64,000 nucleotides of DNA from Escherichia coli (lineage in GTDB: Bacteria > Pseudomonadota > Gammaproteobacteria > Enterobacterales > Enterobacteriaceae). The position numbers are program-made. Location of the stretch: NCBI RefSeq assembly GCF_009931435.1, contig NZ_CP043414.1; one strand, 5' to 3'. Positions 25,601 through 34,600 of the stretch are shown piece after piece; position 1 is the first letter of the stretch; each line of letters begins with the position of its first letter.

Positions 25601-28600
25601 TTACCAAAGAGGATATTCTGGGTTTCCTGGCTGTAAGAAATGCGAATGGCATGACGGGGATGGCGCATGCTATGTCTTATGGTCATGTGGAAATAGTGAA
25701 GGCCATGCTGGACCGTCTCTGCTCGATGAAGGGGGAGTTTAATATTACCAAAGACTATGTCCTCAATAATATACTGGCTTCAAAAAACGGCAACGGCTGG
25801 ACAGGGATATCTTTAGCCATAGCGCACGGACATGTGGAAATACTGAAGACCATACTGGACGCGCTCCCCATGCTGAATGATAATTTTGACATTACCGGCG
25901 CGGATATACAAAAGTTTCTGTTTGCAAAAATCGACGAAGACATCTCGGGTTGGACCAAAGGTATGGACAGAGGGAATAAGGACAAACTGATAAGCATGTA
26001 CAAAATGCTGTTCGATAACATACTGATGGATAATAAGTCAGATATTCCTGTTGATTTGCTGAGGGAATTAAATATTGTCAGCCATATTGTATTGACAGAA
26101 ACTGGAAAACCAAAAACAGACGAAATAGCAAGGCAGTCTGAAACCAGACTCACCTACGGACAACTCCGGCAATGGAGTGAACCGTGTGTACGGCGGGCGG
26201 CCAGGAGTTTAGAGGATTACTGTCGGAACCTAAACATTAATGTGGACACTGTCAAACCCTACCTGACCCCAGACGGGCTTACTCCCCTCGGCGTAGAGAT
26301 GCGGGATAATGTAAAAGTGCCGGGGCTCACTGTTGTGGAGTAAGGTCCTGCACATCCCGTGGCCCCCTGCATGGCTATAGCATGGAAAGCGGAAGAAAAA
26401 GCGCAATGAGGTCGTAGGACGAACGGTTCGGGGAAGGCTGAAGAGTACGTATCTGGTCCTGAAGACCGGATAAACCTTCATCGGTCCAACGTTTAAGCCA
26501 CTTGTAGCTCGTGGCAGGAGAAATGCCGTAGTGACGGACCCTGTAAATAATTCTGTGTAACTGCCCACGATTAAAGGTGGCCGCTCAGGCGGTCACCGTA
26601 TTCGATAATAAATTGTGTGATTCATAGACATCGTTTCAATTTTCTCAGCTCAAGTTCAAGCTGGTTATTCTGTTCCTGTATATGCTCCTCATTGGGCTGA
26701 TAGTTTGCGTGAACGGCATCAGAGTATGGCGTTTTCTTAGCAAGTTCAAAGTAGCCCGCCATCGGAGTTATCAGCCACCCACAGCTGGTCAGGATGTTCT
26801 GCCACGAACTGACGATTCACACAGTCGCCTGCGGCAACGACTTTCCTGCTGACTGTAAACAGAACGACGGTCGGCGGTGAAATAACGGTCTTTGCCCTCA
26901 CCTACGCCATGGCCCAGCGCCCGGCTCATGTCTTACATCACGTTAGTAGCCATCGCTTTCACGCGGGTATCCATTGCGGCGTCGTTCAAAACCATACCTC
27001 CCCAGCCGCAAATACCGGATAACATGATACTTCAACAATAAGATTGGTGCGTGGATGATAGATTGCCAAATAATAATCCATCAAGAAATAATGACAACAA
27101 AAAACATCAAGCATTCCTAATGTTATTTGGCCATATAAAACATTAATAACTCTTGACCTTTCCTGACATTTTCCATATTCGCAATCATATTCTGTTTAGA
27201 CGTTGTTTATAAACATCATGCATAATGAAATCGTCATGTTATTTGGCGATATAAAAAAGTCTTTGAAAATACTCTCTACAACAAGTGCAGTTATAAGCTT
27301 GTTGTGACTGAGCGTCCTTGTGATTTAAAGATATTATCGTTCTTCATCAGATGTAATAACTCAGGAAATTATATTTTCAGGGTGACAGGCTAATCAAGAA
27401 TGATTCTTTTTTATAAGCAATAACCGAATGACTGAATTGTTATATTTCTTTATTCAGCTGCTTAAATATAAACTTTGGAGAATTATGAAACTCAAACATG
27501 TCGGAATGATTGTCGTATCTGTGTTGGCGATGTCTTCGGCTGCGGTTAACGCAGCCGAAGGTGATGAGTCAGTTGCGACCACCGTAAATGGCGGTGTTAT
27601 TCATTTTAAAGGTGAAGTGGTAAATGCCGCTTGTGCGATTGACTCAGAATCAATGAACCAAACGGTTGAGCTGGGTCAGGTCCGTTCTTCTCGCCTGGCT
27701 AAAGCGGGTGACCTCAGTAGCGCTGTAGGCTTCAATATCAAGCTGAATGATTGTGATACCAATGTTTCCAGTAATGCGGCTGTTGCATTCCTTGGGACTA
27801 CTGTCACCAGTAATGACGATACGTTGGCGCTTCAGAGTTCAGCGGCAGGCTCTGCCCAGAATGTCGGTATCCAAATTTTGGACCGTACGGGGGAGGTATT
27901 AATACTGGATGGGGCAACTTTTAGCGCTAAAACTGACTTGATTGATGGCACGAATATACTGCCATTCCAGGCTCGTTATATTGCCCTCGGGCAGTCAGTG
28001 GCCGGTACTGCAAATGCAGATGCGACCTTCAAAGTCCAATACCTATAATTCAGTATTCAGGTGGCTATACGTCATCTGAAATTAAAACAGGGTGTGTGTG
28101 GCATGGCTACTCACACCCGAAAAAATTCATCAATGTTTATCTCATTATTACTAAGGAATGACTTATATTTTGGAACGATATGAAAAAATCATAGAGTATC
28201 TAAACGATTAATAAACAAGGCAGTTAAAATTACTGTGATTTTAAAAATCACTCTGAAGACAATTTTTTATTTCAATAGAGAACCAAGTTTTATTACCAGC
28301 GCATTAAGTCTGGAAACCCGGCCATCCGCCATAGCATTAGCAATATTTACCATTTTCTGATGTGACGGTTTCCCCCGCTTAGCCTATCAACACATGGAGA
28401 ACACATCAGATGCAGACGACTCGTACGCCCTACTCTGTTTCTTTTATGGCGACAGTATTACTTTCATTGATCTTTCTTTGCCATAGTACCATTGCCAATG
28501 CAGCGGTAGCTCTAGGTGCAACTCGTGTAATATTTCCAGCAAATCAGAAACAGGTTTTATTGCCTGTCACGAATAATGATCCTGCCAGTGTCTATCTTAT

Positions 28601-31600: not shown

Positions 31601-34600
31601 CCGTTCCATTCGGTGCAATTGTGACTCACGGTGACAATAACAATGGCAGCATTGTTGCTGAAAATGGTCAGGTCTATCTGACAGGACTTCCACAATCAGG
31701 AAAATTACAGGTTTCATGGGGCAACAATGCAAACGCTAAATGTATTGTTAATTACAAGCTTCCTGAAGTCTCTCCTGGGAACTTACTGAGTCAGCAAACA
31801 GCAGTCTGTCGCTAAGGAACACTAGATTATGAAACACAATAGCATTATTTTCCTCGGTTTATGTCTGGGGTTAACCACCTATTCTGCTTTATCTGCAGAT
31901 AGCGTTATTAAAATTAGCGGGCGCGTCCTGGATTATGGCTGCACAGTTTCATCTGATTCGCTTAATTTTACCGTAGACCTACAAAAACACAGTGCCAGGC
32001 AATTCCCAACGACTGGAAGCACAAGTCCAACCGTTCCTTTCCAGATTACGTTAAGTGAATGTAGCAAAGGGACTACGGGGGTTCGGGTTGCATTTAGCGG
32101 GATAGAGGATTTAGAAAATAATACTCTGCTGAAACTGGATGAAGGAAGCAATTCTGCTTCCGGTTTGGGTATTGAAATTCTGGACGGAAATATGCGCCCA
32201 GTAAAAATAAATGACCTTCATACCGGAATGCAGTGGATCCCTCTGGCTCCTGATCAGGATAATATTTTGCCTTACTCGGCCCGTTTGAAGTCAACACAAA
32301 AGTCCGTCAATCCAGGACTGGTTAGCGCTTCGGCAACATTTACCCTTGAATTTCAATAATCAGAGTCAGATATGAATAGAACTTTCCAAAGACTTCTGTT
32401 GGCTACGCTCTGTGCGCTATTTTCAGCAACTCTTCAGGCCGCTGATGTCACTATCACTGTTAATGGTCGGGTAGTTGCTAAACCCTGCACTATTCAAACC
32501 AAAGAGGCTAGCGTTAATCTCGGGGATCTTTATACACGCAATCTGCAACAACCAGGTTCTGCATCTGGCTGGCACAATATTACTTTATCATTAACCGATT
32601 GTCCGATTGAAACAAGTGCAGTGACGGCAATCGTAACAGGTTCAATTGACAATACGGGTTATTACAAAAATGAAGGTAGTGCCGAAAATATTCAGATAGA
32701 GCTGAGGGATGACCAGGATGCTGCGTTAAAAAATGGCGATAGCAAAACGGTTATTGTTGATGAGATCACTCGTAATGCACAGTTTCCACTTAAGGCAAGA
32801 GCTATCACGGTGAATGGAAACGCAAGCCAGGGAACGATCGAGGCGCTAATCAATGTGATCTATACCTGGCAATAACATCGATTCGATTTTATAAGCCTCT
32901 TTTTTAAATCAATTTTTAACCTAAGGATTTATCATGGGAAAAAAAATTAGTATAAATGTCCTGTTCAGTATTTATTTTCTTTTGATGGCAGGTAAAGTCT
33001 TCGCCTTCAGTTGTAATGTTGATGGTGGGTCAAGTATTGGCGCAGGTACAACTTCTGTGTATGTTAATCTCGATCCTGTCATTCAACCAGGTCAGAATCT
33101 GGTTGTAGATTTGTCTCAGCATATAAGTTGCTGGAATGATTACGGCGGCTGGTACGACACAGATCATATTAACTTAGTACAAGGCTCAGCTTTCGCAGGC
33201 TCCCTACAGTCATATAAAGGATCGCTGTACTGGAATAATGTGACCTACCCCTTTCCGTTGACGACAAATACCAACGTGCTGGATATTGGTGATAAGACAC
33301 CGATGCCCTTACCGTTAAAACTCTATATTACCCCTGTCGGGGCGGCCGGTGGCGTTGTTATAAACGCGGGAGAAGTTATTGCTCGCATTCATATGTATAA
33401 AATTGCAACGTTAGGAAGTGGAAATCCGCGTAACTTTACATGGAATATTATTTCAAATAACAGTGTTGTTATGCCAACGGGCGGCTGTACCGTTGATAGT
33501 CGTAATGTCACAGTGAGTCTCCCGGACTTTCCTGGAAGCGCAGAAATACCCCTGGGCGTATATTGCTCAAGTGAGCAAAAGCTCTCATTTTATCTTTCGG
33601 GCGCTACCACTGACAGTGCCCGACAAGTGTTTGCTAATACAGCACCTGACGCAACAAAAGCATCAGGAGTCGGTGTCTCCCTGATGCGTAATGGAAAAAT
33701 ACTGGCTACGGGAGAAAATGTCTCCCTGGGAACTGTAAATAAAAGCAAAGAACCCTTGGGCTTAAGTGCAACTTATGGACAGACAGGAAGCAAGGTCGCA
33801 GCTGGAGCAGTACAGTCAGTCATTGGCGTTACATTTATCTATGAATAATTGTGATGTTGACCCTGTTATACTTTAGGTTGTGCTTTCCATTCACTAAAAT
33901 TACGCGGATAATTCTTTCCTGAAAGAAATTATCCTACACCTGTAAGAAAATCCGCGCACAATTGAAGTCAGAGTCTTATTTTATATATTGAAAAGTATGT
34001 TAACTTAAAGACTATGAGAGATGATGCTTAACTTATCGCATTTATACTATTCTGTTATTTGACGATAATGAGTTAAAAATAGAATGAGAGTAGCCCCCTA
34101 CTCTCATATATCCAAATGGCCGATAAACCCATTATATATACTGCGCATCATCGCTATTACAAATCCTAATAATTCATTTCCACACAGGATAAGCTGATGA
34201 AGAAAAAAATTGAATCCTACCAGGGAGCTGCCGGTGGTTGGGGGGCTGTCAAATCTGTAGCGAATGCAGTCCGTAAGCAGATGGATATACGCCAGGAAGT
34301 GATTGCCATGTTTGACATGAATAAGCCAGAAGGCTTTGACTGTCCAGGATGTGCATGGCCAGATCCTAAGCACAGCGCGTCATTCGACATTTGTGAAAAC
34401 GGCGCAAAAGCAATCGCCTGGGAAGTCACCGATAAGCAGGTGAATGCCTCTTTTTTCGCTGAGAATACGGTTCAATCATTACTTACCTGGGGAGATCACG
34501 AACTCGAGGCTGCGGGGCGTCTCACTCAACCTTTGAAATATGATGCCGTCAGCGACTGTTACCAGCCATTAAGCTGGCAACAAGCTTTCGACGAAATTGG

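Follow-up and report, generated by a model that had tools for sequence, protein, structure and literature searches.

The 64,000-nt stretch of the Escherichia coli contig NZ_CP043414.1 that was analysed (the window) carries, at 27485-33848 on the plus strand, a chaperone-usher fimbrial operon which, with a probability of about 0.9, is an intact ortholog of the E. coli F9 (Fml/Yde) operon, present as a divergent allele of clade I type. The operon consists of six uninterrupted genes, which encode a major subunit, a chaperone, an usher, two minor subunits and a two-domain adhesin. These genes evolve under purifying selection, and both the promoter and the ligand-contact residues of the adhesin are conserved. 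The F9 operon is a gamma-type paralog of type 1 fimbriae, and the system is already known, ordinary in kind and common in E. coli.

Gene content and integrity of the operon

The first gene (27485-28048, +) encodes the major subunit FmlA, named ‘fimA’ by PGAP, a protein of 187 aa with a Pfam Fimbrial domain (E 5.8e-31). It shares 98.9% of its residues with the O157 protein and 97.3% with that of CFT073, with a dN/dS of 0.03-0.05. The start at 27485 matches the RefSeq annotation of homologous genomes and is preceded by GGAG 8 nt upstream; a longer frame of 206 aa from the ATG at 27428 was rejected, as it contains a stop in O157 and its ATG is missing in CFT073. The periplasmic chaperone (28410-29120, +; 236 aa) is FimC-like, with PapD_N (E 3.9e-39) and PapD_C (E 4.8e-11) domains. 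Its alignment to FimC structures spans the full length (E 2e-88) and shows that Arg8 (GATRVI) and Lys112 (NVKAIP) of FimC, the conserved subunit-anchoring positions, are retained, while the protein shares 91.6-92.4% of its residues with mainstream F9 chaperones (dN/dS 0.08).

The FimD-like outer-membrane usher (29164-31815, +) is an 883-aa protein consisting of PapC_N, Usher and PapC_C domains (E 9.5e-198). It is full length, with residues 42-883 aligned to residues 2-833 of mature FimD structures, and it equals the O157 and CFT073 ushers in length at 93% amino acid identity and a dN/dS of 0.09. Two minor subunits follow, each with a Pfam Fimbrial domain: the FimF-like adaptor YdeS (31829-32359, +; 176 aa), 92-94% identical in amino acids to YdeS of K-12, O157 and CFT073, and the FimG-like YdeR (32372-32875, +; 167 aa). 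With a dS as low as 0.16-0.19 and 94-96% identity to O157 in its 3' part, ydeR may represent an old recombination patch. The series ends with the tip adhesin YdeQ/FmlH (32934-33848, +; 304 aa), which combines FimH_man-bind and Fimbrial domains; the Pfam Fimbrial family (PF00419) is thus present in all four pilins.

No internal stop occurs in the six ORFs, no frameshift was seen in their translations, and each has the length of its counterpart in O157:H7 TW14359 and CFT073. Against the F9 proteins of O157 and CFT073, the six proteins show 91.6-98.9% amino acid identity, and their genes follow the published F9 order (PMC3966885). Directly downstream lies ydeP (start 34197), in the order ydeP-safA-ydeO. 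The F9 site upstream of these three genes is common to O157, K-12, CFT073 and the clade I-type R32_14_1F. An earlier note on this DNA had described a complete six-gene operon of F9/Yde type at 27485-33848, and the ORFs, Pfam domains, equal lengths and absence of stops bear this out. Its assignment to the F9 family is likewise upheld by the gene order, the ydeP-adjacent site, the 92-99% amino acid identity and the lectin domain described below, and the alignment it had proposed to UPEC/EHEC F9 and K-12 genes gives the same lengths as in CFT073 and O157 and orthologous ydeSRQ. A simple scan found no plus-strand terminator after ydeQ, and a search of the whole window with Rfam returned no family at gathering score.

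K-12 MG1655 lacks genes for both the major subunit and the chaperone at this locus; it has ydeT (1149 nt, a 382-aa usher fragment) together with ydeS, ydeR and ydeQ, beyond which lie the yneL pseudogene and hipA. The note was therefore right that K-12 keeps only the distal part, with the usher reduced to a fragment. The K-12 ydeS, ydeR and ydeQ are orthologous to those in the window (92-96% amino acid identity), and ydeP lies downstream in both, but the remnant has neither the promoter nor the major subunit and chaperone genes, and its usher lacks the N-terminal part (382 vs 883 aa), so that K-12 is unable to build the fimbria. That the operon is complete where that of K-12 is not is unremarkable, because most E. 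coli have an intact F9: of 5426 complete genomes, 3585 contain 80% or more of the region, about one third falling below 80%, and intact F9 has been reported in 60-80% of strains (PMC3966885). Insertions of IS elements are common at the locus among the complete genomes.

Promoter region and proposed working of the fimbria

In the window, a consensus scan places a sigma-70 promoter at 27197-27226 (+), with -35 TAGACG, an 18-bp spacer and -10 CATAAT. It aligns with the CFT073 F9 promoter mapped by 5'-RACE (-35 TAGTCG, 18 bp, -10 CATAAT; PMC3966885), from which it differs by one base in the -35 element, and the -10 with its surrounding bases is invariant in a four-way alignment. In CFT073, the transcript begins with a G that precedes the start codon by 251 nt (PMC3966885). 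The corresponding G lies at 27233, 7 nt past the -10, and the predicted transcript would begin there with an AT-rich leader of ~252 nt (27233-27484, +) that ends in the GGAG ribosome-binding site. The promoter and leader region has a G+C content of 30-32.5%, which fits a target of H-NS, and H-NS would presumably bind there. As described for CFT073 only, F9 is silenced by H-NS at 37 °C under laboratory conditions and expressed at ~20 °C (PMC3966885).

Beyond the first gene, an inverted repeat at 28090-28118 (+), 42 nt after the major-subunit stop and with no T-run following, forms a predicted stem-loop. Its RNA fold has an energy of -20 kcal/mol (z -4.6), and those of O157 and CFT073 reach -23.8 and -24.1 kcal/mol. 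The stem-loop is invariant but for one base; the rest of the intergenic region is ~80-89% identical. By analogy, this element may act as an mRNA 3' stabiliser or as an attenuator lifting major-subunit output.

By comparison with F9 and type 1 fimbriae, transcription would proceed from the sigma-70 promoter ~250 nt upstream of the major-subunit gene, with H-NS silencing expected at 37 °C and relief at ~20 °C, and the stem-loop would probably raise the level of major-subunit mRNA relative to the other genes. Sec would export the subunits, and the FimC-like chaperone would then take them up by donor-strand complementation. The FimD-like usher would then polymerise them by donor-strand exchange, FmlH leading, followed by YdeR, YdeS and the rod of major subunits. 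At the tip, the FmlH lectin would bind terminal galactosides (Gal-beta1-3-GalNAc/TF antigen, Gal-beta1-3-GlcNAc) and not mannose. The potential of the strain to assemble these fimbriae may fairly be inferred from intact genes under purifying selection.

Tip adhesin and relation to known fimbriae

The adhesin consists of a signal peptide (residues 1-24), a lectin domain (mature residues 1-160) and a pilin domain. The lectin domain is identical to that of crystallised UPEC FmlH (PDB 6AOW) at 159 of 160 positions, K120N being the sole change, and its dN/dS is ~0.007. All six ligand-contact residues, F1, Y46, D53, K132, N140 and R142, are kept. The roles of these residues in contacting galactosides are described for FmlH (PMC5866590), and their retention suggests that the adhesin binds galactosides.

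Taken at its PGAP names fimA, fimF and fimG, the operon would be a type 1 (fim) operon with a mannose-binding tip, a reading that is almost certainly wrong. The subunits do pass the NCBIfam equivalog cut-offs for FimA, FimF and FimG (YdeS to FimF, 232.6 bits with a cut-off of 200; YdeR to FimG, 250.3 bits with a cut-off of 220), and the usher, the chaperone and the adhesin (end to end, E 2e-78) align with FimD, FimC and FimH. However, the chaperone scores 252.5 bits against a FimC cut-off of 327 and the usher 983.9 against 995; because the FimA, FimF and FimG models pass and the FimC and usher models do not, RefSeq's automated annotation gives misleading names at this locus. The adhesin matches FmlH with 359 bits over 160 residues, compared with 266 bits over 280 residues to FimH. 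In FimH, Q133, N135 and D140 are mannose-pocket residues and Y137 is a residue of the tyrosine gate; here their places are taken by K132, A134, N140 and L136, respectively. The surroundings of the genes also argue against type 1. The 361-nt gap between the major subunit and chaperone genes, searched for a hidden gene, holds only chance ORFs of ≤45 aa and no fimI-like ORF. Upstream of the operon, neither fimB nor fimE is found, the neighbours being an ankyrin-repeat protein and gene fragments, and a fimS-like switch was rejected, as only weak, AT-rich, imperfect inverted repeats surround the promoter and a recombinase gene is absent nearby. The locus itself is the ydeP-adjacent F9 site.

As an F9 operon, it shares with type 1 fimbriae the chaperone-usher architecture, paralogs of FimA, FimC, FimD, FimF, FimG and FimH and, presumably, the same donor-strand exchange. 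The fimI gene, the recombinases and the invertible promoter are type 1 features, none of which occurs in the F9 operon of the window. The mannose-binding pocket of FimH stands against the galactoside-binding pocket residues of FmlH, and regulation by phase inversion against that by H-NS and temperature in F9.

The F9/Fml operons of CFT073 and UTI89 (c1931-c1936) and of O157:H7 have the same six genes, order, lengths, site and mapped promoter, but their DNA is ~90% identical to that in the window, and the chaperone, usher and minor subunits show 7-8% amino acid change. Compared with theirs, the window adhesin has K120N and further changes in its signal peptide and its pilin domain. Upstream, where hipBA-proximal remnants would otherwise lie, the window has a variable island with ankyrin, LRR and SIR2-like genes. 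A six-gene operon of Citrobacter sp. JGM124 has the same order and near-equal sizes (187/245/883/178/167/306 aa); with an usher 69% and an adhesin 53% identical, it is a related gamma-fimbria and not F9.

Divergence, selection and origin of the allele

Measured against the F9 allele of the window, the 5426 complete genomes fall into two groups, with at least 98.8% identity in 18 and at most ~90.2% in the rest. The operon is uninterrupted in 17 of the 18; an IS66 insertion is present in one clade I-type genome, H48. Independent public assemblies also contain this allele, differing by 1-2 mismatches per 7-8.6 kb and with all six gene lengths unchanged. One of the 18, 2013C-4282, has been published as a strain of cryptic clade I; this one neighbour, together with a background identity of 95-97% to mainstream E. 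coli, indicates that the strain probably belongs to cryptic clade I. A search of the literature on F9 in cryptic clades found nothing specific. The rare-allele status, with its ~10% DNA divergence and clade I-type genomes, had been overlooked in the earlier note.

Per-gene dN/dS ranges from 0.03 to 0.24 over a dS of 0.18-0.49 (0.32-0.49 in five of the six genes), and the concatenated genes have a dN of 0.029 against a dS of 0.365; the genes are therefore under purifying selection. This bears on the idea that the operon is a silent relic whose intact ORFs are never expressed and are heading for decay like that of K-12 and phylogroup A. Such a relic would agree with the silencing of F9 by H-NS in the laboratory at 37 °C (PMC3966885) and with the repeated decay of the locus in E. 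coli, as seen in the third of complete genomes with low coverage, the IS insertions and the IS66 of H48. It is nevertheless very unlikely, since the low dN/dS at a dS of ~0.37, reaching its extreme in the lectin, requires long-term selection on the proteins, conservation extends to the promoter and the hairpin behind fmlA, and all six genes are intact in independent assemblies.

A weightier question is whether the divergent allele descends vertically. The segment from ~27102 to ~34200 could have been imported by homologous recombination from an unsampled and more distant Escherichia lineage, or could be an ancient allele that escaped homogenisation of its flanks, which is a serious possibility though an unlikely one. 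The concatenated F9 dS to O157/CFT073 is 0.365-0.367 vs 0.147-0.154 in five flanking genes, and identity rises from 87-93% inside the operon to 94-99% from ydeP onward. The gap between the two groups of complete genomes points the same way, the lsr and pqqL segments being 95-99% identical in most genomes. However, F9 also evolves faster within mainstream E. coli (O157-CFT073 dS of 0.094 vs 0.067 in the flanks), so the normalised excess is only ~1.7-fold, and the per-gene normalised ratios overlap, at 2.6-5.1 for F9 and 0.5-3.8 for the flanks; raw dS alone was therefore rejected as proof of introgression. The flank average is itself lowered, because some flanks (safA, ydeM) look homogenised, and the upstream border coincides with the hypervariable island, so that no clean breakpoint can be read there.

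Nor did a donor emerge from database searches. A GTDB contig scan with the usher, which relies on exact 8-residue peptides and hence does not prove the absence of a closer usher, gave nothing closer among E. albertii, E. fergusonii and clades II-V and returned ushers of Citrobacter, Klebsiella and Kluyvera at ≤69% identity. A protein search with the chaperone returned E. coli clusters at 91-92%, with many fused or frameshifted calls, and a 240-aa group at 70-77%, and showed no intermediate allele indicating a donor. The GTDB scan also returned sequence of E. coli type from contigs catalogued as unrelated organisms.

The intact, divergent F9 operon may, as a more doubtful extension, represent an ancient, separately evolving allele of this lineage, possibly introgressed from an unsampled Escherichia, in which the ligand specificity and the rod subunit are unusually constrained. 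Synonymous divergence is 2.4 times that of the flanks, yet only 1 of 160 lectin residues and 2-5 of 187 major-subunit residues have changed. If this conjecture is true, strong constraint, extending even to a rod subunit that is normally variable, spans the deepest split within E. coli sensu lato and would fit a conserved non-immune niche, be it environmental, plant or low-temperature. Galactoside inhibitors and vaccines directed at FmlH should then also cover emerging pathogens of clade I, a group from which pathogens of STEC/ETEC type are described as emerging (PMC10100065).

The finding is of modest practical use: a strain, probably of cryptic clade I, keeps the complete F9 adhesin gene set. 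Since the receptor-binding domain is near-identical to that of UPEC FmlH, at which galactoside drugs and vaccines are aimed, these drugs and vaccines, along with models of F9 adhesion, should transfer to the lineage. Owing to the 10% divergence in DNA, PCR and probe screens built on mainstream F9 may under-detect the allele.

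Gene content and integrity of the F9 operon

In the ORF list for positions 25000–37000, six successive plus-strand frames occupy 27428/27485–33848, with no ORF of at least 100 aa on the opposite strand within the operon. The frames encode the major subunit (ATG at 27485, 187 aa; Pfam Fimbrial), a chaperone (236 aa; PapD_N and PapD_C), an usher (883 aa; PapC_N, Usher and PapC_C, E 9.5e-198), YdeS (176 aa; Fimbrial), YdeR (167 aa; Fimbrial) and the adhesin YdeQ (304 aa; FimH_man-bind and Fimbrial). The start at 27485 coincides with the RefSeq-annotated start of the homologous gene and is preceded by GGAG. 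An ATG at 27428 was rejected as the start of the major subunit, since its frame carries a stop in O157 and lacks the ATG in CFT073. ORFs, Pfam domains and start site all agree on the intact six-gene operon at 27485–33848 that the earlier note had described.

Homologous regions were compared in R32_14_1F (L001, a near-identical strain), O157:H7 TW14359 (L002), a K-12-like genome (L003), CFT073 (L004) and MG1655 (L016). All five have the operon, or what is left of it, immediately 5' of ydeP-safA-ydeO-ydeN-ydeM-yddA. All six genes have exactly the lengths of their O157 and CFT073 counterparts and no internal stops, and the six proteins share 91.6–98.9% amino-acid identity with those of O157 and CFT073. 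Beneath the megablast match, genome annotation names fimA, chaperone, usher, ydeS, ydeR and ydeQ and then ydeP, and the published F9 gene order (PMC3966885) is that of the window. Position beside ydeP, gene order and identity uphold the proposed membership in the F9/Yde family. Of the operon, MG1655 retains no more than ydeS, ydeR, ydeQ and a 1149-nt usher fragment, ydeT, in line with the statement that K-12 keeps the distal part alone. The earlier finding is real and was correctly interpreted, and the system is well known; what was overlooked is the status of the allele as rare and diverged. The sole value added here is a rare, ~10% diverged allele, most likely of clade I type, with a near-invariant receptor-binding domain.

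In comparison with type 1 (fim) fimbriae, usher residues 42–883 align with mature FimD residues 2–833, and in the alignment of the chaperone with FimC both Arg8 and Lys112 positions are kept. The NCBIfam cut-offs are exceeded by YdeS (FimF), YdeR (FimG) and the major subunit (FimA), and narrowly missed by the chaperone and usher. As a result of these passes, PGAP names fimA, fimF and fimG in some genomes; at the F9 locus such labels are not to be taken as ‘type 1 fimbriae’. The 361-nt gap 3' of the major-subunit gene contains no fimI-like ORF, and upstream of the operon there are neither recombinase genes nor a convincing invertible element.

Prevalence and divergence of the allele

By megablast with positions 27000–34200 as query, matches were obtained in 5359 of 5426 complete E. 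coli genomes; in 3585 of the 5426 (66%) the match spans at least 80% of the region. This agrees with published figures for intact F9, which are 80% among UPEC and 60–61% for reference collections (PMC3966885), so that complete F9 is the usual state in E. coli and K-12 the exception. Only 18 of the 5426 genomes reach an identity of at least 98.8%; the rest lie at or below ~90.2%, with none between. The two ends of the window, with the lsr operon on the left and yddB-pqqL on the right, find their best matches in the same small genome set, most E. coli matching these segments at 95–99% identity. One of the 18, 2013C-4282, is listed as a cryptic clade I strain with a complete genome sequence (PMC10100065), and its place among the nearest neighbours makes a clade I-type genome the most likely source of the window. 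The exact usher protein occurs in 44 blocks of a public assembly index, and loci from three assemblies (GCA_015316125.1, GCA_035607835.1 and ERZ27238355) differ from the window by 1–2 mismatches over 7.2–8.7 kb, their six genes having the lengths seen in the window. The rare F9 allele is therefore real and circulating.

In a sliding comparison with O157, identity is 87–95% in the operon, 80–89% in its intergenic parts and 94–99% from ydeP on. Nei-Gojobori estimates against O157 and CFT073 give a dS of 0.32–0.49 and a dN/dS of 0.03–0.09 for five F9 genes, and 0.18–0.19 and 0.19–0.24, respectively, for ydeR. The concatenated F9 genes have a dS of 0.365–0.367 and a dN of 0.029, and five concatenated flanking genes a dS of 0.147–0.154. 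This dN/dS pattern reflects purifying selection on the F9 genes through long divergence, which argues against the operon being a decaying relic.

The raw excess of F9 dS over that of the flanks, ~2.4-fold, is consistent with import of the allele from a more distant lineage, but no donor was found in a scan of GTDB contigs with the usher or a protein search with the chaperone. Between O157 and CFT073, F9 also diverges faster than the flanks (dS 0.094 vs 0.067), and the per-gene ratios overlap. Vertical descent, with homogenising recombination reduced and the local clock running faster, is thus at least as likely as import.

Receptor-binding domain and expression signals

Mature residues 1–160 of the adhesin agree at 159 of 160 positions with the FmlH lectin domain in crystal structures (6AOW and ten more entries; E 1e-106), the sole change being K120N. 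Position 120 lies outside all three FmlH binding loops (10–15, 44–53 and 132–142; PMC5866590), and all six residues contacting galactose (TF antigen) or inhibitor, F1, Y46, D53, K132, N140 and R142, are kept. The lectin domain has a dN of 0.0027 vs a dS of 0.39–0.42, and the remaining adhesin differences are confined to the signal peptide or pilin domain. FimH aligns with the adhesin end to end, far more weakly than FmlH. The mannose-pocket and gate positions of FimH, Q133, N135, Y137 and D140, are occupied by K, A, L and N in the adhesin. Judged by sequence, the adhesin is FmlH and not FimH. The F9 ligand in CFT073 is Gal-beta1-3-GlcNAc (PMC3966885) and that of UPEC FmlH is the TF antigen (PMC5866590); by analogy, a terminal galactoside is the predicted ligand of the window adhesin.

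The F9 transcript of CFT073 begins at a G that precedes the start codon by 251 nt; its promoter has a -35 TAGTCG, an 18-bp spacer and a -10 CATAAT, and H-NS binds in this region (PMC3966885). The predicted window promoter on the plus strand matches it, with a -35 TAGACG at 27197–27202, an 18-bp spacer, a -10 CATAAT at 27221–27226 and a G at 27233 in the position of the predicted transcription start. In the alignment, the -10/start block is identical between the alleles, and the G+C content of promoter and leader is 30–32.5%. With such a promoter and base composition, control of the operon by H-NS and temperature can reasonably be inferred. A plus-strand stem-loop (28090–28118; -20 kcal/mol, z -4.6) lies 42 nt past the major-subunit stop, with no T-run after it; it differs by one base between the alleles, whereas the spacer around it is only ~80–89% identical. 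By analogy, it may stabilise or attenuate the mRNA in favour of the major subunit. The terminator scan found no plus-strand terminator 3' of ydeQ; the ydeQ–ydeP spacer contains a hairpin with a 10-bp stem (34084–34107) that is terminator-like on the minus strand only.

Flanking regions and F9-like sequence outside E. coli

The stretch from hipA to the F9 promoter (14748–27102) is a hypervariable island whose gene content differs among the window, R32_14_1F, O157, K-12 and CFT073, and which includes several fragments of HTH, IS481 and hydrolase genes. Within it, a minus-strand gene (14868–16220) encodes a SIR2-like domain protein matching the PADLOC candidate defence family PDC-S25 (E 2.7e-82) and, more weakly, ThsA, LmuA and Dsr. 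A minus-strand leucine-rich-repeat gene (19692–23246), with internal repeats ~75% identical, is interrupted by an IS21 element (istA 21533–22555, istB 20754–21536), the R32_14_1F copy being unsplit. A plus-strand gene for a 654-aa ankyrin-repeat protein (24379–26343), which closely precedes the F9 promoter region, is common to clade I-type genomes and absent from the site in O157, K-12 and CFT073.

On the other side of the operon, flank divergence is mosaic (36724–37757 and 39892–41049). safA and ydeM are much nearer to mainstream E. coli (dS 0.02–0.08) than ydeP and ydeN (0.17–0.21), and ydeO is markedly different even from R32_14_1F (dS 0.107), which suggests patchy recombination of clade I-type with mainstream E. 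coli. An 11-kb Tn1721/TnAs1-like Tn3-family transposon (42878–54014), missing at the same site in R32_14_1F, lies at the 3' end of chromosomal yddA. Its genes encode two transposases, one full and one truncated, and a resolvase, alongside a PAS-MCP gene, tetR(A), tet(A) and an EamA transporter gene; many plasmids of E. coli and Klebsiella have 100% identical copies. Among clade I strains, 23.7% carry tetA (PMC10100065).

Outside E. coli, mainstream E. coli-type F9 (usher 93% identical) appears on GTDB genome contigs L010 and L011, from a ‘Candidatus Nanosynbacter’ MAG and Terrisporobacter mayombei DSM 6539, the latter contig being 505 bp long and of low coverage; both are most likely assembly contamination. 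Citrobacter sp. JGM124 (locus L005, 4191–10756) has a six-gene fimbrial operon with the F9 order and nearly equal protein sizes, but its usher is only 69% and its adhesin 53% identical to F9. F9-like gamma fimbriae therefore occur outside Escherichia, but by identity this one is not an F9 ortholog.
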